Assembly (NCBI GenBank): GCA_964626755.1
Contig: CAZVGO010000004.1
Coordinates: forward strand, 11,272 to 75,271
Source of the DNA: an uncultured Anaerolineaceae bacterium
GTDB lineage: Bacteria > Chloroflexota > Limnocylindria > Limnocylindrales > CSP1-4
Reading direction: 5' to 3'
DNA length: 64,000 bases
The translations under genes and the position numbers were made by a program. Below, in pieces: positions 37,389-52,429 of the stretch. The number at the start of each line of letters is the position of its first letter. The stretch's first letter is position 1. The notes beneath the pieces were generated by a model. The model saw only the letters and a program-made list of their open reading frames with translations. It made no database searches and was not told the DNA's origin.

Positions 37389-37445
37389 GATGGGGGAGCG
37401 TGGTGCCGAAGCCGGGATTTGAACCCGGACGAGGTTGCCCTCAAC
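37389..37445. repeat. attL: 57-bp direct repeat, a displaced copy of the 3' end of tRNA-Leu
   Basis: Identical over 57/57 bp to 47020..47076. It contains only the T-arm and acceptor 3' half, so it is not a functional tRNA. Confidence 0.85.
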
Positions 37446-37575
37446 GGTGTTTGAGAGCGCCGCCCGGCGTCCGGGAGCGTCTGCCGGTGTTCGGTTTGTG
37501 CTCCCGGACCGTTCTATTCGCCGGGCGGCGTCCGCCGCTGTGCGAGCGTGAAGCTGCCAGATAAGCTGCCAGGCG

Positions 37576-37983
37576 TCAGGCGTCGACGAGCTCCGGCTCA
37601 GCCTCTTCGCGGGCGGCCTTCCGCGCGGCCGCCCCGTTCGGCCAGTGCCCTCGAGGAATGTCCGGGTGCGCCTTCGCGAACGCGACGGCGACCTCGACGA
37701 GGCCGTTGACGAGCTCCTGCGTGGCCGCCCGCTCGACGATCGTGCGGACGTCATGGATCGCCTGCTCGAGCTCGGCGTACTCGCTCGGCCGCATGTCGGC
37801 CCACAGCGTGCCGGGATGGTCCGCCGATGGGCTGAAGTCGTCCGTCCAGACCGCGCGGACCAGGGCACGGTCGCTGTCGATGAGCGGTCGCAGCCAGTCG
37901 AGCTGGATGTCCTCGTCGGCGTACCCGCCGCCGATGCTCTGCGTGAGGGCCTCGCGGATCTCGGTCTCGGTCGGGGCGGTCAT
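37576..37983 (-). CDS. Hypothetical protein (island cargo, attL-proximal)
   Basis: 135-aa ORF with no recognisable domain. The start of the downstream ORF overlaps its stop. Confidence 0.45.
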   Translation of the reverse strand: MTAPTETEIREALTQSIGGGYADEDIQLDWLRPLIDSDRALVRAVWTDDFSPSADHPGTLWADMRPSEYAELEQAIHDVRTIVERAATQELVNGLVEVAVAFAKAHPDIPRGHWPNGAAARKAAREEAEPELVDA

Positions 37984-38177
37984 CGGTCAGTCCTCCTGTC
38001 GTCGAATAGCGGGAGCCTGAGCACACGGCGCGTCGCCATCGCGGCCCGTGCCTCAATTTCCCGCAGACGCTCCTCGCGGACAAGCCGCTCATGGAGCTCG
38101 GGGTCGTCCTGGAGCCGCCACAGGCGCGCCAGCGCGCCCACCGTGCGCCACGTCTCGGCCGTCTCGGGATCGACCAT
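37980..38177 (-). CDS. Small hypothetical protein (65 aa), Arg/Glu-rich
   Basis: ATGA overlap with the downstream ORF. Confidence 0.3.
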   Translation of the reverse strand: MVDPETAETWRTVGALARLWRLQDDPELHERLVREERLREIEARAAMATRRVLRLPLFDDRRTDR

Positions 38178-38397
38178 CGCTCACCTCCTGAACGCCAACG
38201 CCCCCGACGACGGTGAGTACAGCACCGACGCCAGGGGCGAGGTCAGGATGACGTATTCGGGGGGCCGCTGTACTCGGCCCGGTGATCCTACGCCGTCGCA
38301 GCTGCCCCGGCAAGCCGGCTCTACCCCGCCGGCGGCCGTCGAGTGGCCGTGGTGACCGGATTCGCCCGTGTCACACTTTCGGGCGGCCTGCCGGGCG

Positions 38398-38712
38398 CTA
38401 GGCGTCCAGGTTGCGGGGACCGCCGATTGGAGTGGCGCTCTCGTCGAGCGGACCGATCAACATCCGGACAAGCTCGCCGCAGTCCGGGCACCCGGAAGGC
38501 AAGGCCAGCTGACCGCGGGATCCGCACGCGTGACACTCGAACAGGACGGTGCCCGGCTCGCGGGCGAGGAGCTCCTCGCCACAGTCGGGGCAGGTGCTCG
38601 TGTCGACGTCCGGCCGCGCCGGCGAGATGAGGGTCCAGCACGCCAGGCAGGAGAACAGGCGCCGGCCGGCGAGGTCCTCCGGGGTCGACGGTCGGACGCG
38701 GGAGCTCGTCAC
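38398..38712 (-). CDS. Zinc-ribbon protein (four CxxC motifs)
   Basis: CLAC...CPDC...CHAC...CPDC; starts 2 nt after the tape-measure-like stop. Confidence 0.45.
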   Translation of the reverse strand: MTSSRVRPSTPEDLAGRRLFSCLACWTLISPARPDVDTSTCPDCGEELLAREPGTVLFECHACGSRGQLALPSGCPDCGELVRMLIGPLDESATPIGGPRNLDA

Positions 38713-38713
38713 C

Positions 38714-40462
38714 TCAGTAGCCCTCGGTCGACCAGCGGAGCGCGGCCCGCCGGAGCGCTCGACCCGTCTCGCGCTCGACGTCGCCCGGCTGGACGCCGTA
38801 GATGTTCTGGGAGCCGATCAGCGGGCCGCCGCGCCCCCCGCCGCCCGAGAGGATCAGCCTCGCCGCCGCCGTGATGGTCTCGCTGTCACCGGCGGGCGCC
38901 ACGGCCGAATGCCTGGGCAGGAAGACGGTCTCGGGGCCACGCTCGTTCATCCGGGCGAACCCGCCCATCCAGTCGCGGTCGCCGCCGGCGAGGCGCGGGA
39001 TCGTCTTGAGGCCGAGGCCTGGCCAGTCGAACCGGGCGACGACGCCGAATGGCGTCTCGAACCCGGGGATGTGGATCTGGATGCCGTTCAGGTGGCGGAT
39101 CATCCCGTTGACGAGATCGATGACGAAGTTGATCCCGCCCTTGATGACGTTGCCGATCCCCTTCCACAGCCCGGTGAAGAACCCTGTCAACCCCTGCCAC
39201 GCGTCCGTCACGAAGCTGGCCGCCGCGACGATGGCGCCTGCCGCGACGTCGAAGACGCCCACCGCGATCGAGAGGGAGGCCTTGACGGCCACGGCGATCC
39301 CGCCGAAGACCCGCCCGAACAGGTTGCCGAGGAACGCGACCACGCCCGGGATCGTGTCGCCGAGCCACTTCACGACGACCGCGAAGATGGGCTGGAGGCG
39401 CTTCCACACGGCCTCGAGGAAGCTGCGGATGCCGCCCCAGTCGGATTCCCACGCCTCGAACAGGATGGCGACGGCCGCGACGACCGCGCCGACCGCGAGG
39501 ATGAGCGGGGCGAGTGCCAGGACCATCGACACGATCGCCGGGACCACGGCCGCAGCGATCACGAGGGCCAGAGCGGTCGCGATCGGGACCGCGTGCTCCT
39601 GCACGAAGGCGAAGACGGCCTCGAGCTCCGGTCGCAGCTGCTCGAACAGGTCCTTGCCCGCCTGGATCGCGGGGCCGAGCATGTCCCGGAGGCCGGTCGC
39701 CAGTGTGATCACGGCAGGGTAGAGGGCGGTGATGATGCCCTCGACCATCTCGGCGAACATCGCGGACATTTCGTTGCCCACGCGGATGCCCTCGGCCGTG
39801 CCGGCGGCGTAGGCGGCCTGCGCGTCGGTCGTCTTCTCGAAGAGCAGCTGCTGGGTCGCGAGCGCCTTTGCCTGCTCGAGCGCCGAGCCGGTCAGTGCGT
39901 CCTGGCCGTTCTTGAGCAGGCGGGCCGACACGTCGGCCTCGGTGATCGAGATCCCGAGCTCCTTGAGGCCGTCCCGCTCGCCGAGCAGGCTCTTCTGCAG
40001 GACCACGGCGACCTCGGCCGCGGTGCGGGTCCCGCCCGACCACTCGGACAGCGCGCCGGACAGGCCGATGATGTCGGTCGACATCTCGGCGGCCTGCTCC
40101 CGGGACATGCCCATCGGGACGAGGAGGTCGCCGAGGTTCGCCGCGAGCCCGGTCGCCTCCCGCCGGGTGAGGCCCATCGCCGCGGCGCTCGTGGCGGCCC
40201 ACTTCTCCACGACGCCCAGGCTCTCGCCGAAGACGGTCTGCGCCTTCGCGTCCATCGCCTCGAATTTGGCCCCGACGTCGAAGACCTGCTTGCCGATGGC
40301 GAGCGCGGCACCGAGGGCCGTGGCGATGACGACCGTGGCCTTCTTCGCGACGTCGGCGAGCGAGGTGAACAGGCCCTTCGAGCCCTTCACGCCCGAGTCG
40401 AACTTCGAGCGGTCGAGCGCCAAGGTCGCATAGAGCGCCCCGACGGGGATCCCGGCGGCCAT
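38714..40462 (-). CDS. Phage tail tape-measure-like protein (TP901-type core), short form (582 aa)
   Basis: N-terminal LALDRSKFDSGVKG...AKFEAMDAKAQTVFG pattern, a long Ala/Val/Ile-rich hydrophobic segment, and a Gly-rich C-terminus. These are typical of TMPs. Confidence 0.65.
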   Translation of the reverse strand: MAAGIPVGALYATLALDRSKFDSGVKGSKGLFTSLADVAKKATVVIATALGAALAIGKQVFDVGAKFEAMDAKAQTVFGESLGVVEKWAATSAAAMGLTRREATGLAANLGDLLVPMGMSREQAAEMSTDIIGLSGALSEWSGGTRTAAEVAVVLQKSLLGERDGLKELGISITEADVSARLLKNGQDALTGSALEQAKALATQQLLFEKTTDAQAAYAAGTAEGIRVGNEMSAMFAEMVEGIITALYPAVITLATGLRDMLGPAIQAGKDLFEQLRPELEAVFAFVQEHAVPIATALALVIAAAVVPAIVSMVLALAPLILAVGAVVAAVAILFEAWESDWGGIRSFLEAVWKRLQPIFAVVVKWLGDTIPGVVAFLGNLFGRVFGGIAVAVKASLSIAVGVFDVAAGAIVAAASFVTDAWQGLTGFFTGLWKGIGNVIKGGINFVIDLVNGMIRHLNGIQIHIPGFETPFGVVARFDWPGLGLKTIPRLAGGDRDWMGGFARMNERGPETVFLPRHSAVAPAGDSETITAAARLILSGGGGRGGPLIGSQNIYGVQPGDVERETGRALRRAALRWSTEGY

Positions 40463-40499
40463 CAGGCGTGCACCGGCTGGCGGATCGCGCGGATCGTGG

Positions 40500-40832
40500 T
40501 CATCTCATCTCCTCGTTCACAGGGTCGGACGGTGGCGTCCAGGACAGCGGTGCGCTCAGGCGCGCGCTCATCTGGAGCTCGAGGACGCGATCGCGGGCCC
40601 GATCGCTCGCGGTGCACGCCTCGCACGGTGGCGGGTCGTCGACTCGCCGGCGATCGACCGGGCCGCAGCCTCGCCGCGCCTCGAGGGCCTCGAGCAGCCC
40701 GCGGCTGAGCCGGTACGCGCCCTCGTGGTCGCCCCGCTCGACGAGGACCTCGAGCTCCGGCAGGTCCACGCGCCACCAGGTATCGCCGGGCGGACGATGC
40801 CGAGGAGCGGCGGGAGCGCGCAGGACGGCCAC
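40500..40832 (-). CDS. Hypothetical protein (Cys-containing), between the TerS-like and tape-measure-like genes
   Basis: GTG at 40832, 12 nt after the upstream stop. The N-terminal part of the track ORF is rejected as non-coding. Confidence 0.25.
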   Translation of the reverse strand: MAVLRAPAAPRHRPPGDTWWRVDLPELEVLVERGDHEGAYRLSRGLLEALEARRGCGPVDRRRVDDPPPCEACTASDRARDRVLELQMSARLSAPLSWTPPSDPVNEEMR

Positions 40833-40843
40833 GACCCGACAGC

Positions 40844-41248
40844 CTATCCCGCGCGCCCGGCGCCGCGGCGAGCCCAGCGGGCCCGCGCTGCCGAACGTGC
40901 GCGGACCGATGCCAGGCTTGTGATGCGATCGGTCCCGTCGCCCGGCTGCGCCGTCGTGGCGTCGGGCAGGTCGAGCTGCGCCGCCAGGCGGGCCACGATG
41001 ACGCGATGGGCCCGCTCCTCGGCAAGCAGGGGGTGGGCGACCGTCTGGCCCCGGCTGCCGGTCACCACGGCACCGTCGGTCGCGACGATCGCGCGGACTT
41101 CGTCGACACGATCGAGGGACCGCGCCAGCTCGTGGAGGAGGGCGAGCTCGCGCGGTGCGAAGTCGTACGTGGCGAGGAGCTTCCGCCACAGCCGGCGGCC
41201 ACGGCCACCGGGTGCCAGGTCGGGAGGTGGTGAGCGGCGCGCCGTCAC
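40844..41248 (-). CDS. Possible phage small terminase subunit (P27-like), tentative
   Basis: The segment RLWRKLLATYDFAPRELALLHELARSLDRVDEVRAIVATDGAVVTGSRGQTVAHPLLAEERAHRVIVARLAAQLDLPDA resembles the P27-family pattern. GTG at 41248. Confidence 0.35.
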   Translation of the reverse strand: MTARRSPPPDLAPGGRGRRLWRKLLATYDFAPRELALLHELARSLDRVDEVRAIVATDGAVVTGSRGQTVAHPLLAEERAHRVIVARLAAQLDLPDATTAQPGDGTDRITSLASVRARSAARARWARRGAGRAG

Positions 41249-41411
41249 GAATAACCACCCGCTAATCGGGCGTTGTGGCCGGTTTGGGGTGCATATACGG
41301 CCGATAATCGGCGCGACCGGACCAGGGGGGGGACCCCCAAGTCCCGTCGAGGGAGCGGCCACCTGCGCACGCCCGCCACCGTGCGTACGTGCTTGCGGGC
41401 CAGTTTCCCGG

Positions 41412-41732
41412 TCATGCCGGAGCCCGCCGCGGTGCCACTGCCCCGACGTGGACGTCGGTCGGGCCGTAGGAACCGTCCGGCCTCCACCCGACGCGTCGCT
41501 CCCAGCGCTGGGGCGGCCGCGGTGAGCCGTCGGTGCCGAGCAGCTTCCTGATCGCCGGCGAGCTGTCCTCCGGCCGACTGCGGACGTCGCCGGCGACCCG
41601 GTCCCGCGCCTGGCCGAGCCGCTCGGCGGTCCGAGCTCGATCACGTCCGGCGGCCGAGGCCTGAGCGACGCGATCGGCCGATGTGACCCGGCCTGACGGC
41701 ATGCTCTCTCGCGGCAGCTCGCGGTAGGCCAT
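41412..41732 (-). CDS. Hypothetical protein
   Basis: ORF whose ATG lies 2 nt after the upstream gene's stop. Function unknown. Confidence 0.3.
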   Translation of the reverse strand: MAYRELPRESMPSGRVTSADRVAQASAAGRDRARTAERLGQARDRVAGDVRSRPEDSSPAIRKLLGTDGSPRPPQRWERRVGWRPDGSYGPTDVHVGAVAPRRAPA

Positions 41733-41734
41733 CG

Positions 41735-42247
41735 TCAGCCCCGCGGGATCGCGGCCACGTCGGCCACGGTATCGAACGTCTCGGCCGCCGGCGGATCCCA
41801 GTCGGCCAGGCCGTTCGACGCCTGGTGATCCGCCAGCTCGCCGATCGCTTTCCAGACGCTGCCCATGTCGCCGGTACGGATCGTCTCGGTCCAGGCTTCG
41901 ACGTTCGAGTCCCAGGCGAACTGCGCGTGCTCGGTCAGCGACTTGAACACGGGATCCTTGTGGAGCTTGGCCCGGCGAGTGGCCGCGGACTCGATGCGCG
42001 ACTCGGCGATCGTCGAATGGGCCATCTGCCGAAGAGCCTCGTACCGCGGCCGGTACGCGGCATAGGCCGCCTTCCGGTCATCCCGCTGGCGGTTCGTCTC
42101 CACCTGGCGATCGACATACTCCTCGAGCTCATTGGCGAGGCGCTTCCTCTTCACGTCCGGGTCTTCGGCCATCCCGGGCGGACCCTCCCAGGCGTCGGCG
42201 AGGTTGGTCAGGCGCTGTCCGGGGTTCGTGCGCTTCGGCTTCGTCAT
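41735..42247 (-). CDS. Hypothetical phage-associated protein (170 aa)
   Basis: MTKPKRTNPGQRL...; the ATG overlaps the upstream ORF stop (ATGA). Confidence 0.5.
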   Translation of the reverse strand: MTKPKRTNPGQRLTNLADAWEGPPGMAEDPDVKRKRLANELEEYVDRQVETNRQRDDRKAAYAAYRPRYEALRQMAHSTIAESRIESAATRRAKLHKDPVFKSLTEHAQFAWDSNVEAWTETIRTGDMGSVWKAIGELADHQASNGLADWDPPAAETFDTVADVAAIPRG

Positions 42248-42711
42248 GCGGCGATCGTCGTCCCTGCCGACTTTGCGCGCGACTTTGCACAGCGACCGCG
42301 GCCGCCGCACCACGATCGCGGTCGCCCCATGCCCCGAGCTGGCAGCGGGGCGCCGCATCCGCGGCAGCGGCCCGGCCGGGGTTTCCGCGCGAAAACTGTC
42401 CGCGGCCCCTTGGCCTCGAGCTCGGCGAGGTCGAGCATGCGGCCGGCGGCCCGCCGCAGGGCCTCGACCATGACCCGCGGCAGGCCGTGCCCGTGGTCGT
42501 CGGCGATCGCGACGAGCGCGCGCGACAGGTTCTCCGGCGTCCATTCGGGGCCGCTCACAGCGCCAACCCGACGCGCTCCAGGCAACGCGGGCACCGCGAT
42601 CGAGCTGGCCAGGCGTTGCGCTCGGCCGTCGGCGTCGCCCCGCAGGCTGTCCGGCCCGACCCGGCGCGTGGCGGCTGGGCGTGGCCCACGCCATCGCGGC
42701 CGGCGACCCAC
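42244..42711 (-). CDS. Hypothetical small basic protein with a C-terminal Cys cluster (CRGCG...WCGGRGRC). Start uncertain
   Basis: Its stop overlaps the downstream ATG. Confidence 0.3.
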   Translation of the reverse strand: MGRRPRWRGPRPAATRRVGPDSLRGDADGRAQRLASSIAVPALPGARRVGAVSGPEWTPENLSRALVAIADDHGHGLPRVMVEALRRAAGRMLDLAELEAKGPRTVFARKPRPGRCRGCGAPLPARGMGRPRSWCGGRGRCAKSRAKSAGTTIAA

Positions 42712-42747
42712 ACGAACCGCCCGACCGGCATCAGCTCGTCGGGCGGG

Positions 42748-44418
42748 TCACGATGCCCACCCGGGCTCGACGAGGCCCTGAGCAGCGATCGCCGCGACGT
42801 CGTCGGGCATACCCTCGACCCGGTCCTCGTCGCCGCCGTCGAAGATGCCGACCCCCTCGTCGCCGACTGACACGGCCTCGACTGACACTGACACCACGTC
42901 ACCCCCTACGGGGGGAGTGACGCTGTCAGCGCGATCTACTGACATGACAGTGTCAACGCCTGACGCTGACGCCCCGCCCACGCTCGCGGGGCCACTGACA
43001 GGCGGACTGACAGGCACTGACACGGCCCCCGACACGCGAAGTGGCATGTCAGGCTCCACGCGCCCGGTCTCGCGGAGCTTCGCGATCTGCCGCCAGACCG
43101 TCCGCTCGGACAGCTCGAGGTAGGTCGCGATGGCCCCGGCGTCGGCGTACCCGGTGGCGATGCAGCCGTGAATCTTCTCCATCGTGCTGACGCCGAGATC
43201 CTCGCCGGCGACGACCTGGACGACGTCGAACGTGCCGCCCTCGGCCCGGAGGACGAGCTGCGCGTGGGGGGCGCGCTTGCGGACGGTCCAGAGGACGCGC
43301 TGGGCGCCGGCGTCGGCCATGAGCGCGACGGTGTCGGCCTGGCGGGTCCACTGACCCATGACGTCGGCGAGGGCGGTCCCGTGCTGGGCGTTCGGCTCGG
43401 GCTTGCCGCGGGCCTTCGCCCCGCCGGCGACCCTGGCCGGCTTGACGAGGTGGACGAAGACAATGATCGCGCAGCCGTACTGGCGGGCGAGGCCCCGGAG
43501 GAACCGGATCGCGGCCTTGAGCTCCTTGCCCCACTCGTCGCCGAGCATGCTCGAGCCGGTGTCGAACATCACGACCGCGGGCTCGACCCGCTCGATCGAC
43601 GCCCGGATGTAGGCCTGGTCGAGCGGGTCGGTCAGCGACAGGCCCTCGAGGCTGACCCCCCAGTAGTCGGCCAGGTCGGCCCGGGTGAGGCCGAGGCGGG
43701 CCAGGGTCTCTTCCTCGCGCCGGACCTCCTCCTCCTCGCCGTTCTCGACGTCGATCGACAGGACGCGCCCCGGGCGCGGGATCCGGTAGTGGTTGAAGAG
43801 CGCACCGTGGCCGGTCGCCTTCCGGATCCCGAGCTCGATCCGGGCGTGCGATTTGCCAAGGCCCTCGGGCCCCGCGACGACGAGCAGCCGACGTCGCCGG
43901 AGGAGGCTGTCGATCTCCCAGTCGTCGACCATGGCGGCCGCCGCATCGGCCTCGCTCCGCGGCCGCGGCCAGGGACGCTCCTCAGCGTGCCTTTCAGTGA
44001 CGTGAATGGCACGCGCCGGCGTCCGGGCCGCCCGGTCGCGTTCGAGGCCGGCGACGGCGGCCAGGTAGTCCTCCGGGCTGTCGTAGCCGGCGGCGTGCAG
44101 CGAGTCGACGAGTCGGGCCCGCCAGCCGGCGGCGTCGACCACGATCGCCTCACGCTCCTCGTCGGTCAGGCGATTCCACGGGTCGATCCGGTCCGCCGAG
44201 GCCGTGAGCTCAGCCTCCGCGCGGATCCCGGCGCTGTCCGCCGGCGCGTGGCCGTTCGGCTTGCTCTTGCGAACGTTCCGCGCGGAGACTTTCCGGGCCC
44301 CTGGCGCCGCCGGCAGCCACACCGGCGCGCCGGCGTTGGCATCGCCTGCAGCTTTCGGCGCGGCCGTGCCCTCGAAGAACGACGCGACCTCGGCTTCCTT
44401 CGCGGAACGTCTGGTCAT
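42748..44418 (-). CDS. Replication protein: RepA-like/AAA_25-type RecA-fold ATPase with a C-terminal HTH and a low-complexity VSV-rich tail
   Basis: Walker A VVAGPEGLGKS; Walker B-like VVMFDTGSS; HTH ATYLELSERTVWRQIAKLRETG. The ATG at 44418 is inside track ORF 42748..44562. Confidence 0.65.
   Translation of the reverse strand: MTRRSAKEAEVASFFEGTAAPKAAGDANAGAPVWLPAAPGARKVSARNVRKSKPNGHAPADSAGIRAEAELTASADRIDPWNRLTDEEREAIVVDAAGWRARLVDSLHAAGYDSPEDYLAAVAGLERDRAARTPARAIHVTERHAEERPWPRPRSEADAAAAMVDDWEIDSLLRRRRLLVVAGPEGLGKSHARIELGIRKATGHGALFNHYRIPRPGRVLSIDVENGEEEEVRREEETLARLGLTRADLADYWGVSLEGLSLTDPLDQAYIRASIERVEPAVVMFDTGSSMLGDEWGKELKAAIRFLRGLARQYGCAIIVFVHLVKPARVAGGAKARGKPEPNAQHGTALADVMGQWTRQADTVALMADAGAQRVLWTVRKRAPHAQLVLRAEGGTFDVVQVVAGEDLGVSTMEKIHGCIATGYADAGAIATYLELSERTVWRQIAKLRETGRVEPDMPLRVSGAVSVPVSPPVSGPASVGGASASGVDTVMSVDRADSVTPPVGGDVVSVSVEAVSVGDEGVGIFDGGDEDRVEGMPDDVAAIAAQGLVEPGWAS
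42866..43026. repeat. Iteron-like cluster: at least 8 direct copies of (A)CTGACA(C/G/T) plus a palindromic TGACAGTGTCA
   Basis: Copies at 42866, 42881, 42888, 42938, 42994, 43006 and 43016. The palindrome is at 42945..42955 and a tandem TGACGC x2 at 42961. All lie inside the 3' end of the rep gene. Confidence 0.6.
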
Positions 44419-44703
44419 GGCCGCGGGCAGCACGCGCCGACCTCCTCGAGCAGCCGCAGGTCGGTGCGGACAGCGGAGGCCTCCGCCCGCCGGCCGACGG
44501 CGTCGAGGTGATCGCGGAGCTGCTCGAGGTGCCTGGCCAGGCGCTCGCGGGCCGTCCGGCAAGCGATCCCTTCGCGCGGATGACCGCGACGAGCTCGATG
44601 CCCCCGACGCGGGGCCGGCCGGCTGATCCCGAGCCGGCCCGCGTCGGGGAGGAGGACGTGATCCGCAGAAGACGACGGATCAGGTTGTGGCCCGCGTCGA
44701 CGC

Positions 44704-44761
44704 GGCCAATGCGCCGTCGAGGACCTCAGATGGTCAGGTCGACGCGGATCGCGCATTGGCC
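44704..44761. promoter_or_regulatory. Large hairpin (11-bp perfect arms ggccaatgcgc/gcgcattggcc) spanning the 3' end of the Xis-like gene
   Basis: Seen directly. It could be a terminator or a protein-binding site between the regulatory and replication modules. Confidence 0.3.
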
Positions 44762-45015
44762 TCGCGCCTCCCGACGTCGCCGTTGACGTAGCTCGCGATC
44801 GCGCCCGCCGGCACCAGGCGCCGGCGACCGATGGTGACGGTTCGAAGCCGGCCCGCCGCGATCTCGCCGTAGAGTGCGGATCTGCCGATTCCGAGCCGCT
44901 CCGCGGCAAGCGTGGTCGACAGGAGCTGCTCGGGCGCCGTCGCAGGCGCGATCGCGAGCTCCTCGCGGAGCGCGTCGACGAGCTCGGCAACGGCGGCCAC
45001 CAGGCGATCGCTCAT
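44734..45015 (-). CDS. Excisionase-like HTH DNA-binding protein (MerR/Xis superfamily)
   Basis: LSTTLAAERLGIGRSALYGEIAAGRLRTVTIGRRRLV is a classic actinophage Xis/HTH pattern. Confidence 0.6.
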   Translation of the reverse strand: MSDRLVAAVAELVDALREELAIAPATAPEQLLSTTLAAERLGIGRSALYGEIAAGRLRTVTIGRRRLVPAGAIASYVNGDVGRREANARSAST

Positions 45016-45200
45016 CGAGCGGGCACCTTCGGCCGCCCGGCCACCGCCTCACGCTCGATCCCGTCGACGAGGATGCGCAGGGCCTCGCGCTTGGGGTCCC
45101 GGTAGTTCTGCCGCGCCAGGTCGCCGAGCGCGTCGCTCGTCTCGGGCGGCAGGGTCAGAACGAGCCGCGGCCACGTCCGCCGGGTCGAGTGTGAGTCCAT
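45012..45200 (-). CDS. Ribbon-helix-helix (CopG/Arc-like) DNA-binding protein
   Basis: LTLPPETSDALGDLARQNYRDPKREALRILVDGIER; its stop overlaps the Xis-like ATG. Confidence 0.6.
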   Translation of the reverse strand: MDSHSTRRTWPRLVLTLPPETSDALGDLARQNYRDPKREALRILVDGIEREAVAGRPKVPAR

Positions 45201-45241
45201 GAGGCGTATTGGGCCGGACTACAGGCCCTCGTGTCGCGGAC

Positions 45242-45272
45242 CAAAAGCGGCAGCCGCCAACAGCCGCTTTTG
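45242..45272. terminator. Perfect 10-bp inverted repeat (caaaagcggc/gccgcttttg) between the int-proximal operon and the RHH gene
   Basis: Seen directly. Candidate terminator and/or operator. Confidence 0.4.
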
Positions 45273-45279
45273 CCCGCCC

Positions 45280-45753
45280 TCAGAGTCGGCGGCGTTGCGC
45301 CTCAGCCTTGGCCCATGCCCACGTCTTGCCAGCCGCTCGCAGCTGCGCCCGGATCCAGCGCTCCTCGCCGACCGCCGAGTTGCGGCCGAAGTCGTCCTGA
45401 GTCGGCGGCCACGACCCCGACCATTCGACGAGCGCCGCGACGATCCGCTCCGCTGCCGCCATCGCCGGCTCCGCCTCGGCATCGGGCAGCGTGATCGCGC
45501 CGTCGCGCGCGACCACCCCAAACCGCTCGCACCGCCGACAGCGGACAACCACCGTGCCATCGCGACCCGAGAGCCAGTCGAGCTCCGGACCGTCGCGCAG
45601 CCATGGGGCGACACAGTTCGCGGCGTGGGCGATCGATCGCGGTGCCGCGAGCAGCACGGCGGCGGGCATCGCGCGGAGCTCTGGGGGTTCAATCGGGTGC
45701 CGGAGGGCTTCGCTCAGCCAGCGGATGGCGTCCTGAGCCGTCTCGTCGGTCAT
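45280..45753 (-). CDS. Hypothetical protein (157 aa), co-transcribed with the integrase
   Basis: The ATG overlaps the integrase stop (ATGA). Contains CRRCERFG. Confidence 0.5.
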   Translation of the reverse strand: MTDETAQDAIRWLSEALRHPIEPPELRAMPAAVLLAAPRSIAHAANCVAPWLRDGPELDWLSGRDGTVVVRCRRCERFGVVARDGAITLPDAEAEPAMAAAERIVAALVEWSGSWPPTQDDFGRNSAVGEERWIRAQLRAAGKTWAWAKAEAQRRRL

Positions 45754-46892
45754 CGCGCACCGCCTCCCAGCGCCCGATCCAGGGCGTCTGCTGCCGCGCG
45801 TCGCTGGTCCGGCGTGACGTGCGAGTAGACGTCGGCGGTGATCGTGATCGACGAATGACCGAGGGCCCGCGATACCTCGAGGAGCGAGGCGCCCTGGGCA
45901 AGCATGAGCGACGCCGCGGTGTGCCGGAGGTCGTGGAGGCGCACCGGGAGCCCGAGCCGGTCGGCGGCCGCGCGGAAGGCCGCGGAGACCGTGTACGGCG
46001 CCCACGGCCGCCCCAGCGCGTCCGTGAAGGCCAGGCGGTCCCGGTCCTGCCACGATGCGCCGGCGGCGAGGCGCTCGGCCGCCTGGCGGGCTTTCTGGCG
46101 CCGGAGGCCGTCGATCGCGGTCGTCGTCAGGTCCACGGTCCGGCGGCTCCGGGCCGTCTTCGGCTCCGCGAGCTCCCACCCGCCGCCGTGGGCCCGCGAC
46201 AGGGAGCGCCGGACCGTGAGCGATCGCCCCTCGAGGTCGACGTCGGTCCATCGCAGCCCGAGCAGCTCGCCGAGCCGGAGCCCGGTGCCGGTCGCGACCG
46301 CGAAGAGCGGCCCGAATGGATCGTCCGCAGTCGCGTCGATCAGGCGGCCGACCTCGCCGGCCGTCAGGGCCCGCATCTCGCGCCGCTCGAGGCGCGGCGG
46401 CCGCGCCAGGGCGGCCACGTTCCGGGTGAGCAGCCCGTCGCGCTGCGCGTCGTGGAGCGCGCGCCGGAGGGTCGATCGGGCGTGTCGGATCGTCTGCGAC
46501 GAGAGCCCGCGACCGGCGAGCTCGGCCATCGTCCGCTCGACGTGCGCCGGCGTCAGCTTGGTCAGCGGGATCCGCGCCAGGGCGGACCAGTAGGCCGAGA
46601 CGTGACGGGCGTACTCGCGGTGCGTGGCGGCCCGGAGTCGCGGCCGGACCGCGACGACCCATCCCGCCAGGTAGGCGCCCGTCGTCTCGCCGGTCGCGAA
46701 CCCCGCGCTCGCCTCGCGGCGCAGCGCCTCGAACTTGCGGACGACGTCGGCCCGCGTGCGACCCGACACATAGCGGCGGACGCTCCGGGTCCCGTCGGGG
46801 TGGGGGAGTACGAGCGACCCGCGGAGTCGGCCGTCGGCGGTCGGGTAGATCGCGCCTTCGCCGGCGGATCTCCGGGCGGTAGACTTGGCCAT
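45750..46892 (-). CDS. int: Tyrosine-type site-specific integrase (phage integrase family)
   Basis: MAKSTARRSAGEGAIYPTADGRLRG N-terminus. The C-terminal catalytic region has RHTAAS...HSSITIT...Y (R-H-R-Y pattern). It sits adjacent to the tRNA. Confidence 0.9.
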   Translation of the reverse strand: MAKSTARRSAGEGAIYPTADGRLRGSLVLPHPDGTRSVRRYVSGRTRADVVRKFEALRREASAGFATGETTGAYLAGWVVAVRPRLRAATHREYARHVSAYWSALARIPLTKLTPAHVERTMAELAGRGLSSQTIRHARSTLRRALHDAQRDGLLTRNVAALARPPRLERREMRALTAGEVGRLIDATADDPFGPLFAVATGTGLRLGELLGLRWTDVDLEGRSLTVRRSLSRAHGGGWELAEPKTARSRRTVDLTTTAIDGLRRQKARQAAERLAAGASWQDRDRLAFTDALGRPWAPYTVSAAFRAAADRLGLPVRLHDLRHTAASLMLAQGASLLEVSRALGHSSITITADVYSHVTPDQRRAAADALDRALGGGAR

Positions 46893-47019
46893 TGGGTGGC
46901 GTCCTCCGTAGCAGGAGCGCGACCTTGACGGCCTCCGGTTCGCGCCGGGGGCCGTCGCGCTATGTCCGTCAGTGTACGCCATTGTCGCGGACCGCGAAGC
47001 TGCCGCGAAGCTGCCAGGG

Positions 47020-47076
47020 GTGGTGCCGAAGCCGGGATTTGAACCCGGACGAGGTTGCCCTCAACGGTGTTTGAGA
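47020..47076. repeat. attR: 57-bp direct repeat forming the 3' part of the intact tRNA-Leu
   Basis: Identical to 37389..37445. Confidence 0.85.
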
Positions 47077-47107
47077 CCGTCGCGTCTGCCAGTTCCGCCA
47101 CTTCGGC
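47021..47107 (-). tRNA. tRNA-Leu (anticodon CAA), class II with a long variable arm and encoded CCA
   Basis: Acceptor stem GCCGAAG/CTTCGGC, anticodon loop CTCAAAC, T-loop GGTTCAAATCC, long variable arm. Confidence 0.85.
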
Positions 47108-49355: not shown

Positions 49356-49504
49356 AGGAATCGAGGTCGGAGGCGGAGGTCCCCGACGCCGTCCGCTCGA
49401 GGTTTGCAACGTGGTAACGCCGGGCCGCGGAGGCCCGCTCTCAGGCCCGGCCGGTACACTTGACCCGACACCGTCCCTCCCTTCGACACCCGCCGAGGCT
49501 GCCG

Positions 49505-52429
49505 ATGGAACGCCTGATGCTGCTCGACGGCTACGGGCTCGTCTATCGCGGATATTTCGCCCTCCCGCCCCTCACCACGAGCCGTGGCGAGCTGGTCAAC
49601 GGCGTGTTCGGGTTCTGCAGCATCGTCCTCCGCGGCTTCCAGGACCTGAGGCCGGACTACGTGGCGGTTTCGTTCGACCTCCCCGGGCCGACCTTCCGGC
49701 ACGAGCAGTACGCCGAGTACAAGGCGACCCGGCAGCGGATGCCGGACGACCTCCGGGACCAGTTCCCGAAGGTCCGCGAGGTCGTCAAGGCGCTCCGGAT
49801 CCCCGTCTACGAGATGCAGGGCTACGAGGCGGACGACGTCATCGGCACGATCAGCCGCCAGGTCGAGAGCAACGAGGACCTCGAGACGACGATCGTCACG
49901 GTCGACCTCGACATGCTCCAGCTCGTCGGTCCCCGAACCCGCCTGATGACGACGCGCTCGGGCGTCGAGAACACGGTCATCTACGACGTGGCCCGGATCG
50001 ACGAGCGATTCGGGCTCCGGCCGGACCAGATGGTCGACTACAAGGCGCTCAAGGGCGACCCCACCGACAACATCCCCGGCGTCCCAGGGGTGGGCGAGAA
50101 GACTGCGGCGAAGCTCATCCGCGAGTTCGGCGACCTCGAGTCCCTCTATGCCCGGCTCGACGACGTCACGCCGGAGAAGCTCCGCGCCAGGCTGCTCGAG
50201 CACCGCGACCAGGTCCACCAGGGTCGCGAGCTGTCGCGGATCGTCGTCGACCTGCCGGTCCATCTCGACCTCGAGGCGGCTCGCCTTGGCGACTACGATC
50301 GGGACACGGTCGTCCGGCTCTTCCGGGAGTACGAGTTCCGGACGCTCATCGAGCGCCTGCCGGCGATCAGCGGCGAGTCCGCGGCGGATGCGCAGGACGC
50401 CCTCCGCCGGGTCGTGGCGAGCGGCTCCGTTCCGGCGGCGCGGGTCGCCGGGCGCCCGTCAGGCTGGGGTCCGGGACGTCCGGTCCGCCCGCCCGACGGT
50501 GGTGAGCTCCAGCTCCGGCTCGACTTCGACACCGTTGCAAAGGCCACGCCGGACGCGGGCGACGGGCGGGTGGCCCGGGAGCCGACCGGTGACCTGCCCT
50601 CGGAGCTGGCCGCGGCGATCGCGGATCCGGGCCGGATCGAGGTCCGGGACGAGGACGCCGTTGACGATCTCGCCGGGTGGATCGGATCCCAGCCCGCGCT
50701 CGGCATCGCGCTGTTGCTCGACGATCCGCGGCCCCGCCGCGGTACGCCGCTCGCGCTCGCGGTCGCGGGCCTGGACGGGCGGGTCGTCGCGGTTGAGGGC
50801 GCGGCCGCGGTTGATCGGCTGCGGGCCCTCGTCGAGCGGCTCGGCGTGCCGCTCGTCGGCCACGAGGTCAAGCCGCTCGTCGTGGCCCGGTTCGCCGCGG
50901 ATCCCGCGGCTCCGACGACGCCGGTCGCGTTCGACACGCAGATCGCCGCGTACATCCTCAACGCCTCGCTCCGCAGCCAGACGATCGCCGACATCGTCGC
51001 CGAGCAGCTCGACCAGATCCTTCCGCCGCCCGCGGACCTGACGTACGCCGCGCGGGCGGGACTCGAGGCCCTTTCCGCGCTCGCCGTCCGCGAGCCGCTC
51101 GAGCGACGGTTGGCGGACGAACACCTCGACAGGCTGTTCCGCGAGATCGAGCTCCCACTCCTCCCGGTCCTCGCCCGGATGGAGGCGACCGGGGTCGCGC
51201 TCGATCACGAGGCGCTCGGCATCCTCGACCGGGAGTTTGCCGCCGAGATCGCCCGGCTCGAGCAGGAGATCTACGTCGACGTCGGCCACGAGTTCAACCT
51301 CGGCAGCCCGAAACAGCTCGAGCAGGTCCTGTTCTTCGAGCTCAACCTGCCGAAGGGCAGGCGGACGAAGACCGGCTTCTCGACCGACGCGTCGGTCCTC
51401 GAGGACCTCCGCCCTGCTCACCCGATGATCGACAAGCTCCTCGAGTGGCGCGTCTACACGAAGCTCCGCTCGACGTACGTCGAGGCCCTGCCGACGCTGA
51501 TCGCCGCCGACGGCCGGCTCCACACGACCTTCCACCAGGCGGTCGCCGCGACGGGCAGGCTGTCGTCGTCCGATCCGAACCTCCAGAACATCCCGATCCG
51601 GACGGTTCTCGGGCGGCGCATCCGCCGGGCGTTCGTCGCCGGCGCACCGGACGTGACGCTGCTCGCTGCCGACTACTCCCAGATCGAGCTCCGGATCCTT
51701 GCCCACGTGTCGGGCGACGAGCACCTCCGCGACGCATTCGCCCGCAATGCCGACATCCATCGCGAGACCGCGGCCCGGGTGCTCCACAAGGACCCGGCCG
51801 ACGTGACTCACAGCGAGCGCTCGATGGCGAAGATGGTGAACTTCGGGCTGGCCTACGGGATGAGCGACTTCGGGCTGTCGAGCCGGGCGAACATCTCGCG
51901 CCAGGAGGCCCAGGAGTTCATCAACAGCTACTTCGCCGCGTACTCCGGGATCAGCTACTACATGATGGCGATCAAGGAAACGGCCAGGTCGCAGGGCGGA
52001 GTCGAGACGCTCCTCGGGCGGAAGCGCCAGATCCCCGAGCTGCGGGCGTCGAACCCGGCGCTCCGCGGGGCGGGGGAGCGGATGGCGATCAACATGCCGA
52101 TCCAGGGCACCGCCGCGGACATCCAGAAGATCGCGATGATCCGGCTCGACGAGCGGCTCCGCGCCGACGGGTTCCGGGCGCGGCTGCTGCTGTCCGTCCA
52201 CGACGAGCTGCTCCTCGAGGTGCCGCGCGACGAAGTCGAGCGACTCGCCCCCGTCGTCCGGGCGACGATGGAGGGCGCCCTCCCGCTCGACGTGCCGCTG
52301 ACGGTCGACATCAAGGTCGGCGACGACTGGGAGTCGATGACGCCCCTGACCCGCGAGGACGCGGTCGCGGCCGAGGCCGACGAGCCGCCCGAGATCGACG
52401 CGGCGTTGCCGCTCGCGGGCCAGGTCTGA
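49505..52429 (+). CDS. polA: DNA polymerase I (5'-3' exonuclease, degenerate 3'-5' exo-like domain, polymerase domain)
   Basis: LLDGYGLVYRGYFA; GYEADDVIGT; RRAFV; YSQIELRILAH; KMVNFGLAYGMS; LSVHDELLLE. Confidence 0.9.
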   Translation: MERLMLLDGYGLVYRGYFALPPLTTSRGELVNGVFGFCSIVLRGFQDLRPDYVAVSFDLPGPTFRHEQYAEYKATRQRMPDDLRDQFPKVREVVKALRIPVYEMQGYEADDVIGTISRQVESNEDLETTIVTVDLDMLQLVGPRTRLMTTRSGVENTVIYDVARIDERFGLRPDQMVDYKALKGDPTDNIPGVPGVGEKTAAKLIREFGDLESLYARLDDVTPEKLRARLLEHRDQVHQGRELSRIVVDLPVHLDLEAARLGDYDRDTVVRLFREYEFRTLIERLPAISGESAADAQDALRRVVASGSVPAARVAGRPSGWGPGRPVRPPDGGELQLRLDFDTVAKATPDAGDGRVAREPTGDLPSELAAAIADPGRIEVRDEDAVDDLAGWIGSQPALGIALLLDDPRPRRGTPLALAVAGLDGRVVAVEGAAAVDRLRALVERLGVPLVGHEVKPLVVARFAADPAAPTTPVAFDTQIAAYILNASLRSQTIADIVAEQLDQILPPPADLTYAARAGLEALSALAVREPLERRLADEHLDRLFREIELPLLPVLARMEATGVALDHEALGILDREFAAEIARLEQEIYVDVGHEFNLGSPKQLEQVLFFELNLPKGRRTKTGFSTDASVLEDLRPAHPMIDKLLEWRVYTKLRSTYVEALPTLIAADGRLHTTFHQAVAATGRLSSSDPNLQNIPIRTVLGRRIRRAFVAGAPDVTLLAADYSQIELRILAHVSGDEHLRDAFARNADIHRETAARVLHKDPADVTHSERSMAKMVNFGLAYGMSDFGLSSRANISRQEAQEFINSYFAAYSGISYYMMAIKETARSQGGVETLLGRKRQIPELRASNPALRGAGERMAINMPIQGTAADIQKIAMIRLDERLRADGFRARLLLSVHDELLLEVPRDEVERLAPVVRATMEGALPLDVPLTVDIKVGDDWESMTPLTREDAVAAEADEPPEIDAALPLAGQV

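Follow-up and report, generated by a model that had tools for sequence, protein, structure and literature searches.

The replication origins of Staphylococcus aureus pathogenicity islands (SaPIs) and of chromosomal islands that phages can induce (PICIs) contain 6–12 penta- or hexanucleotide iterons located immediately downstream of rep, with an A+T-rich center and at least two iterons per side in opposite orientation, and the Rep helicase of these islands reads the iterons through a C-terminal winged helix (PMC9371898; PMC6092414). We studied a window of 64,000 bases (the whole stretch analyzed) from contig CAZVGO010000004.1 of an uncultured Anaerolineaceae bacterium, in which an array of short repeats lies in the 3' end of a predicted initiator/helicase gene, rep, belonging to a 9.6-kb element integrated in a tRNA-Leu gene. 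An earlier note on this DNA had proposed that the array is an iteron-type origin at, or overlapping, the initiator gene and that the DNA repeat, rather than the protein tail it encodes, is what is selected. Comparison of related loci supported the first proposal, and we consider the array likely to be the vegetative replication origin of the element. The second proposal was favored by copies read in two phases and both orientations, by rare codons, by conservation at synonymous sites, by untranslated arrays, and by tail-less relatives that have arrays.

The likeness to the SaPI/PICI rep-ori layout drawn in the earlier note was borne out for the position of the putative origin, at the 3' end of the initiator gene where SaPI/PICI origins lie at or immediately 3' of it; for iteron number, with nine exact hexamers here and 8–13 in most relatives with a clear array; and for the initiator, a helicase with a C-terminal winged helix-turn-helix (HTH) as putative iteron reader (domains AAA_25 and HTH_11). 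The element is also a small island at a specific attachment (att) site with the order int-xis-rep-ori-...-terS. Differences were apparent as well. The ATPase here is of the RecA-fold AAA_25 type, whereas SaPI Reps are AAA+ proteins of the superfamily 3 (SF3)/MCM-like type, and because of these different folds we regard the two Reps as analogues, not homologues; a PDB sequence search with the island Rep gave no match, although SaPI Rep structures are in the PDB. In addition, the origin of this island would lie inside the rep open reading frame (ORF), and in place of a central A+T region it has just a TA core held between a C run and a G run. Among the island genes, neither a divergent repressor gene nor a repressor-like gene of the Stl/Rpr type was recognized, and relatives are in Chloroflexota metagenome-assembled genomes (MAGs). 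The SaPI/PICI origin design would appear to have arisen on a different helicase fold.

Other described systems share single features with the locus. The lambda origin is embedded in gene O, which codes for the initiator protein binding this origin (PMC5043065), much as the array at 42867–43052 is within the initiator ORF at 42748–44562. However, the four iterons of lambda are 19-bp inverted repeats that lie beside a 40-bp A+T tract and to which the N-terminal domain of O binds as dimers, and O is no helicase and recruits host DnaB through P; here, the units are of 6–7 nucleotides (nt), they occupy the very 3' end of a gene for a helicase, and no long A+T tract is present. Many close homologues of Rep carry a primase-polymerase (Prim-Pol) domain on the same AAA_25 and HTH arrangement, in which they resemble the Prim-Pol/helicase proteins P4 alpha, pRN1 ORF904 and the Prim-pol of integrative and conjugative elements from actinomycetes (AICEs), whereas the Rep in the window has no Prim-Pol domain. 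P4 alpha is a multifunctional primase-helicase-origin-binding protein with cognate short repeats. P4 alpha and its ori are mentioned in PMC6092414, while for AICE Prim-pols the role in replication is stated to be unknown, no origin is defined, and pMEA-type elements are described as having no iterons (PMC2440964).

The best-covered structural match of the ATPase core was RSF1010 RepA (1nlf), a member of the same AAA_25/RecA-fold class of hexameric helicases. To our knowledge, RSF1010 RepA has no domain that reads DNA sequence, and the RSF1010 iterons are bound by a separate protein, RepC; in the island, by contrast, helicase and putative iteron reader are in one polypeptide. The iteron plasmids (RepA, pi or TrfA type) differ in having 17–22-bp direct repeats and a WH1-WH2 Rep, whereas the core here is 6–8 nt at 10–12-nt spacing, and a Pfam search found no Rep_3-type or similar domain in the island Rep.

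The array and its putative initiator

The window has a G+C content of 71.5%, and CTGACA/TGTCAG is not in excess across it (12 copies on both strands, 14.2 expected from shuffles). Nine of the 12 hexamers were, however, concentrated in the 186 nt at 42867–43052, where about 0.04 would be expected if the shuffle mean were spread evenly. The shorter core TGACA occurs 18 times in the window and eight of these are same-orientation copies inside the array region, which bore out the at least eight same-orientation copies that the earlier note had reported. The perfect palindrome TGACAGTGTCA (42945–42955) and the tandem TGACGC x2 (42961–42972) were also present as it had described, and the array is indeed within the 3' end of the rep ORF (minus strand, 42748–44562), in the part encoding ...VSGAVSVPVSPPVSGPASV...VVSVSVEAVSVG... 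The extent given for the array was correct as to the repeats it listed but about 30 bases too short at one end, where an inverted copy lies at 43047–43052. Beside the nine exact hexamers there were about six degenerate copies. Tandem Repeats Finder detected just the 12-nt-spaced triplet at 42993–43022, and the array is therefore a dispersed one and not a simple tandem repeat.

When repeat density was compared across the window, the array was one of the two most repeat-dense 300-base stretches (maximum hexamer count of 9; window median 4; 99th percentile 7). There was no second iteron cluster in the island, as every CTGACA copy within it belongs to the array. The other equally dense stretch in the window, outside the island, has nine GCTCGA/TCGAGC copies in 300 nt at about 51000–51400 (plus strand) within a 1,004-codon ORF (49418–52429).

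The array begins with the iteron at 43047–43052, 17 nt past the codons for the HTH recognition helix (43069–43107), and includes three blocks, A to C (Table 1). Read in the rep sense, block C is CTGACA-GCGTCAC-TCCCCCC-GTA-GGGGG-TGACG-TGG-TGTCAG-TGTCAG-(9 nt)-TGTCAG, and its center is an imperfect palindrome, CGTCACCCCC-TAC-GGGGGGAGTGACG (42897–42922), that was absent from the features listed in the earlier note. As DNA, block C is predicted to fold into a hairpin with a free energy of -20.7 kcal/mol (z -3.85). Of all segments of the island, the 25-mer of least stability and the 30-mer of lowest G+C content (47%) were both at 42933–42957, in the middle of the array, and this segment is a candidate for unwinding. 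Searches of the array for Rfam families, sigma-70-like promoters and intrinsic terminators found none.

The Rep protein consists of a disordered N-terminus, the RecA-fold AAA_25 ATPase (9.9e-15), the winged HTH (HTH_11, 5.9e-06) and the tail encoded by the array, and its matches in PHROG were to primase/helicase families. An AlphaFold (AF2) model of the 561-residue form, made with 26 homologues, had a core with a predicted local distance difference test score (pLDDT) of about 90 and a three-helix HTH at residues 417–455. The tail, residues 470–561, had a pLDDT below 50 and no secondary structure, and is predicted to be disordered. Foldseek matched the core to RadA, DnaB, RAD51 paralogues and RSF1010 RepA (TM-score 0.68 normalized to the target). 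The recognition helix ERTVWRQIAKLRE is proposed as the reader of the iterons. The same Rep protein is present in two assemblies, and in many of the 27 Rep homologues found AAA_25 and HTH are fused to an N-terminal Prim-Pol (PF09250), which is accompanied by PriCT_1 in some cases and not in others.

Conservation and turnover of the array in related loci

To compare the array between loci (numbered with the prefix L), we aligned the DNA of nine further loci with Reps 67–81% identical to that of the island, giving ten loci in all. The array aligned base for base across the ten. The parts in common were the three direct TGTCAGT units, a variable spacer, ...TGTCAGTGACATGTCAG..., and then CGCACTGACACTGTCAGT-CCCCCC-GTA-GGGGG-nGAC-nnn-GTGTCAGTGTCAGTC. 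Mean pairwise identities, calculated for nine of the ten loci with L009 left out, were 80% for iteron block A and 82% for blocks B and C together, compared with 83%, 87.5% and 63% for the first, second and third codon positions of the Rep core, 55% for the spacer and 41% for the DNA after the array. The higher identity of the iteron blocks than of the third positions of the core therefore indicated constraint at every position, as expected of a DNA site.

Insertions and deletions fell in the spacer, including frameshifts that end rep in L053 and L054. In these two loci the rep frame closes behind the third iteron, but the rest of the array and the palindrome are retained, in L053 between called genes. 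The earlier note had asked whether relatives conserve the DNA repeat while the protein tail varies, and L053 and L054, with their untranslated arrays, together with the conservation of the iteron blocks at all codon positions, indicated that they do. It had named two outcomes that would count against an origin: repeats conserved at the protein level but not in the DNA, and homologues lacking the repeats. The first was contradicted by the synonymous-site identity and the untranslated arrays, and the second by the arrays in both close and distant relatives.

A more distant set comprised about 35 loci with Reps 39–49% identical. In these loci rep ends about 15 codons past the HTH, and in most of them the first repeat is at, or a few bases from, the rep stop codon (e.g., AATGAGTCCACG). 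The 400 nt past the HTH hold 8–13 copies of a hexamer that is seldom or never seen elsewhere in the locus and that differs between lineages; the hexamers include AGTCCA, AGTGCA, ACTGCC, AGTACG, AGTGCG, ATTCCC, TTCACC and ACGACA, and the fuller iterons AGTCCA(CG), AGTGCA/CTGCACT, ACTGCCA, AGTGCCA, GAGTACGG, GAGTGCGG, CATTCCC, TTTCACC and AACGACACG. Among the 24 loci of at least 3.5 kb, the post-HTH stretch was the most repeat-dense 300 nt in 19. A test for stop-free frames in the distant arrays was uninformative, since G+C-rich stretches of 120–200 nt are often open in some frame, and the argument rests on the position of the rep stop.

The layout in most relatives was 4–7 direct copies at a spacing of about 10–11 nt, 2–3 further copies, a center of C-run, TA core and G-run, and 2–3 inverted copies. 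L046, with ACTGCCAAACTGCCACCACC-TATATA-GGTGGCAGTGGCAGTGGCAGT, is an example of opposed iterons around such a center. Of 48 distinct related loci, 30 had a strict C-run/TA/G-run center past the HTH, mostly 127–149 nt from the anchor, whereas the background expectation is 0.014 per 450 nt. The same design was seen in a still more distant branch, with the iterons CAGTGCC or GTGAGACT and the center CCCCCTACGGGGG; two viral contigs from IMG/VR, 34.6 and 21.2 kb long, belong to this branch.

The sequence of the iteron co-varies with that of the HTH recognition helix across lineages. The helix ERTVWR(Q/H) occurs with TGTCAGT, LRTVRRH with TGTCACC, RSG(T/V)YKV with AGTCCACG, ERSLYNAL with ACTGCCA, KRSLYNAL with AGTGCCA, RNRIFAAI with CATTCCC and KKRVYAAI with TTTCACC. 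The helix KQTLYDAL occurs with GAGTACGG (Gln with A), and KRTLYDAL and HRTFYDAL with GAGTGCGG (Arg with G); these pairings, at the first helix residue, fit the usual preferences of side chains for bases. Although shared ancestry plays a part in this, a fixed position combined with turnover of sequence is the classic signature of cognate initiator-iteron pairs. The more than 12 natural helix/iteron pairs, including the Gln-A versus Arg-G swaps, are also a ready data set for studies of DNA-recognition specificity.

In some lineages rep is open through the array. Both L003 and L004 (iteron TGTCACC) read through it into VSP/VTP tails fused to a Cys-rich peptide, and three members of the more distant branch read into it and have ET-rich tails (with GAGACT). 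The tail thus differs with the iteron of the lineage (VS, VSP/VTP or ET), so that the iteron in use dictates its sequence. Apparently, rep has been fused repeatedly with whatever lies beyond the origin. The Cys-rich peptide, DY.AHQ..HRRDG.GW.C..C, is the C-terminus of Rep in L003, L004 and protein P0007 and a separate 30-codon ORF downstream of the origin in L046, and lies about 250–350 nt past the rep HTH.

With regard to hosts and partners, six of the seven relatives from the genome collection (L002–L008) were in Chloroflexota MAGs (Anaerolineaceae, Chloroflexia, Limnocylindrales) and one was in a Candidatus Eisenbacteria MAG, which points to a high-G+C Chloroflexota bacterium, rather than an actinomycete, as the probable host of the window. 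The rep-ori modules occur with a tyrosine integrase (L051, L053) or a serine recombinase (Resolvase; L052, L054), with or without an N-terminal Prim-Pol on Rep; these mixed partners suggest that the replicon module is shuffled among integration modules.

Possible mechanism and alternative explanations

If the array is an origin, Rep would be a self-loading RecA-fold (DnaB/RepA-like) helicase-initiator with a C-terminal winged HTH, whose helix ERTVWRQIAKLRE would read the heptamer TGTCAGT. The three direct iterons at 42995–43022, about one helical turn apart, would nucleate Rep oligomers, and opposed copies would flank both the easily melted segment at 42933–42957 and the C-run/TA/G-run palindrome at 42897–42922. 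Rep would assemble there, probably as two opposed rings, the duplex would open at the soft segment or at the palindrome, and Rep would encircle the single strands, loading itself as the replicative helicase for what may be bidirectional replication. Priming could be performed by the fused Prim-Pol in many relatives and, because the Rep of this island has no primase domain, by the host or a helper in this case. As the rep frame of this clade happens to have no stops before or through the origin, the origin would be translated as a disordered Val-Ser (VS)-rich linker, followed by a short acidic peptide.

Several observations weigh against an origin. The array is not equally clear everywhere, as L006, L007 and L008 have just 3–4 copies of their best hexamer, and in L015, L021 and L017 the array or its center is 200–370 nt beyond the rep stop and not directly after it; in L015 and L021 a short insert puts the array start about 155 nt farther downstream. 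The A+T-rich element is weak: the central element in the window, CCCCCC-GTA-GGGGG, is present but has a TA core of only 3 nt and no true A+T-rich tract, and the softest segment still has 47% G+C. Rep of this island has no recognizable primase and autonomous replication may need other factors. Finally, the co-variation of helix and iteron is partly confounded by shared ancestry. Even so, we believe that a replication origin is the probable identity of the array. Such an origin and its initiator would be a concrete, testable candidate for small integrative elements of poorly studied, mostly uncultured high-G+C bacteria, and a possible start for vectors and for spotting satellites in those bacteria.

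The alternative that survives best, although we consider it unlikely, is that the array is a Rep-binding site for regulation or copy control (an operator, a 'handcuffing' site or a roadblock for the small ORF, terS and the tape-measure-like gene) and not a start of replication. Plasmid iterons commonly act in both initiation and control, the co-variation indicates only probable binding by an HTH protein, the array lies between rep and downstream genes that are all co-directional with it, and the A+T-rich element is weak. However, the putative binding protein is a helicase and no plain repressor, there was no promoter-like site within or adjoining the array, and the island holds no second iteron cluster to be the true origin. 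In addition, direct and opposed repeats around a palindromic TA center match the experimentally proven SaPI/PICI origins.

We think it improbable that the array is a packaging (pac) site for the small terminase of the island. The island does encode a TerS homologue, and pac sites can be short repeat arrays, but it is the rep end with which the array is associated, terS lying at a distance of 1.5 kb, relatives in which no terS is recognizable (L051, L054) have the array as well, and the array sequence tracks the HTH helix of Rep.

A further explanation is that selection is on a repetitive VS-rich peptide and that the DNA pattern is a by-product of it. The rep ORF is open through the array in 8 of the 10 close relatives, a motif (T/S)V(S/T)PP(V/I)GGD in the tail looks conserved, and so does the acidic peptide after the array. 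Yet, in the frame of rep, five of the forward TGTCAG copies read GTG-TCA-G (Val-Ser) and two read one base out of phase as cT-GTC-AGt, again Val-Ser, so that the peptide is obtained in two phases, with rare codons, while TGTCAG is kept. Two inverted copies read GAC-AGC and GAC-ATG, with the inverted copies encoding Asp-Ser, Asp-Met and Leu-Thr. The Ser codons TCA and AGT made up 9 of 12 in the array compared to 0 of 19 in the body of rep and 4.2% in 14 reference ORFs (P = 8e-11), and codons ending in A or T 31% compared to 7.6% (P = 1e-8); codon usage was normal again downstream of the array. Keeping the hexamer imposes rare codons on the rep tail.

The evidence from relatives also argued against selection on the peptide. 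The array survives untranslated in L053 and L054, most relatives are tail-less yet have an array, and the other read-through lineages have different tails (VSP/VTP with TGTCACC, ET-rich with GAGACT). The conserved-looking SV(S/T)PP(V/I)GGD, with its PPVGG, is the translation of the central palindrome CCCCCC-GTA-GGGGG, and the tail is predicted to be disordered. On the basis of codon phase, rare codons, untranslated arrays and tail-less relatives we rejected the peptide-repeat explanation, which we regard as most improbable. It seems likely instead, as part of the origin assignment, that the VS-rich linker is a by-product of the iterons and the tail is origin DNA translated, a clean case in which an overlapping DNA element accounts for a low-complexity protein tail, and a warning against annotating such tails as protein features. 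A peptide related to the acidic one, EPEDV(D/E)AAIAA.FPW, is retained in L051, L052 and L056. Most of the differences fall at third positions of codons, and a read-through Rep product is therefore probably made. A 92-residue, TD/T-rich ORF antisense to the array (42845–43123, plus strand) was rejected as a gene, as the strand opposite to it codes for the well-supported HTH and the ORF is merely the complement of the repeats.

It is scarcely conceivable that the cluster is a chance or low-complexity artifact of G+C-rich DNA: although the hexamer is not over-represented window-wide and other G+C-rich hexamers reach 8–9 copies per 300 nt in places, nine copies in 186 nt far exceed the roughly 0.04 expected, and tens of independent loci have kept both the sequence and the location of the array.

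Returning to the origin assignment, a broader possibility, which we put forward only tentatively, is that these loci represent an undescribed, mainly Chloroflexota-associated family of phage or satellite replicons. In such a family, a self-loading helicase-initiator of the superfamily 4 (SF4) type (DnaB/RepA-like) would read lineage-specific hexamer iterons around a nearly invariant C-run/TA/G-run palindrome, and rep would have been fused repeatedly through its own origin, giving VS-, VSP- and ET-rich tails in separate lineages, some reaching a downstream micro-ORF or acidic peptide. If this speculation is correct, the roughly 190 bp would be both origin DNA and a translated disordered linker with a role of its own, e.g., as a tether for an acidic tail that binds a partner or as a link between the synthesis of Rep and the occupancy of the origin. 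Elements of this general kind are well known; the value of the locus would be that it defines the replicon of an uncharacterized family of elements and offers a natural set of helix/iteron pairs.

The island and its genes

The island is bounded by att repeats of 64 nt that are 97% identical, with 57 nt perfect, and whose start-to-start spacing of 9620 gives an element of 9.6 kb. Its 12 ORFs are all on the minus strand (Table 1). Pfam and PHROG profile searches found no capsid, portal or large terminase among them, and no conjugation genes were found in the island. From its gene content, the element appears to be phage-satellite-like: it is small, is integrated at a specific att site, and has int and xis, its own small terminase homologue and an incomplete set of virion genes. 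Arm-type sites for the integrase or Xis were considered as the identity of the array and ruled out, as the att sites are about 4–5.5 kb distant at the island ends.

Table 1. Coordinates of the island, its genes and the elements of the array in the 64,000-base window.
Feature	Position	Strand	Details
attL	37400–37463		left island boundary; 64-nt direct repeat; distal duplicate of the tRNA-Leu 3' part
Double-zinc-ribbon protein and two more small ORFs		-	listed after the tape-measure-like gene
Tape-measure-like protein	38714–40462	-	582 aa; phrog_991 7.9e-25 and 12 further tape-measure PHROGs
Small terminase (TerS) homologue	40844–41248	-	phrog_1496 9.8e-17; Terminase_4 2.3e-04 (below Pfam cut-off); gene call in L001
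170-aa ORF		-	downstream of rep
Small Cys-rich ORF	42555–42727	-	directly downstream of rep; MPVGRFVWVAGRDGVGHA...RCPRC...; from the ORF list
rep (initiator/helicase)	42748–44433	-	P0001, 561 aa; longest ORF to 44562 (604 aa)
Post-array part of rep ORF	42751–42866	-	acidic C-terminal peptide (..DEDRVEGMPDDVAAIAAQGLVEPGWAS)
CTGACA, seven copies	42867, 42882, 42888, 42939, 42995, 43007, 43017	+	
CTGACA, two copies	42924, 43047	-	
Block C	42867–42929	-	large imperfect inverted repeat; center 42897–42922
Block B	42933–42972	-	degenerate iterons CGTCAG x2 (42960–42971), palindrome TGACAGTGTCA (42945–42955), exact iteron 42939–42944
Spacer between iteron blocks	42973–42994		G+C-rich, variable
Block A	42995–43022	-	three direct iterons TGTCAGT (rep sense), 10–12-nt spacing: 43017–43022, 43007–43012, 42995–43000
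Block A, degenerate fourth copy	43030–43035		GTGTCG
Inverted iteron	43047–43052	+	TGTCAG on plus strand, CTGACA in rep sense; most rep-proximal copy
Winged-HTH recognition helix	43069–43107	-	ERTVWRQIAKLRE; HTH_11 residues 475–500; AF2 helix 443–455 of P0001
AAA_25 ATPase domain	43438–43923	-	RecA-fold, DnaB/RepA-like; residues 214–375 of the 604-aa ORF
Excisionase-like HTH_17 protein	44734–45015	-	PF12728 2e-06
Two small ORFs		-	listed between the integrase and excisionase-like genes
Tyrosine integrase	45750–46982	-	Phage_integrase 1.8e-21; phrog_1 8.8e-69
attR	47020–47083		right island boundary; inside tRNA-Leu(CAA), 47021–47107, minus strand

Between rep and the next called gene is a gap of 500 nt that holds two ORFs, neither of which had a family match in Pfam or PHROG. 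The small, conserved Cys-rich one (42555–42727) has the pattern GRDG.AHA...TAC...ER.AWP...RCP.C, and a similar peptide follows rep in L009; genes of 77–81 aa adjoin rep in L051, L055 and L057. The second (42244–42711, minus strand) overlaps it and has a C-terminal CRGCG...RxxWCGGRGRCAKSR motif. Further downstream, the 170-aa ORF contains a sub-threshold Rfam match to the Cyano-2 small RNA (41772–41863, minus strand; 26 bits versus a gathering cut-off of 40; E = 0.004), which is probably due to chance. The tape-measure-like gene is odd as satellite cargo, there being no other recognizable tail, capsid or portal gene in the island, and could be a remnant or a helper-interference device.

The Logan contig SRR10083321_82723 (L001; 9,623 nt, corresponding to about 37427–47049 of the window), which stems from an independent assembly and equals the island, was considered as an excised circle of the island and rejected. 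Its length is no evidence of excision, because it is the sum of 9,563 nt, the unique segment that the perfect att repeats enclose, and 2 x 30 nt, as expected if a de Bruijn assembler with k=31, a value we assumed for Logan, breaks at the repeat. Several relatives are on contigs of about 9.5–10.7 kb.

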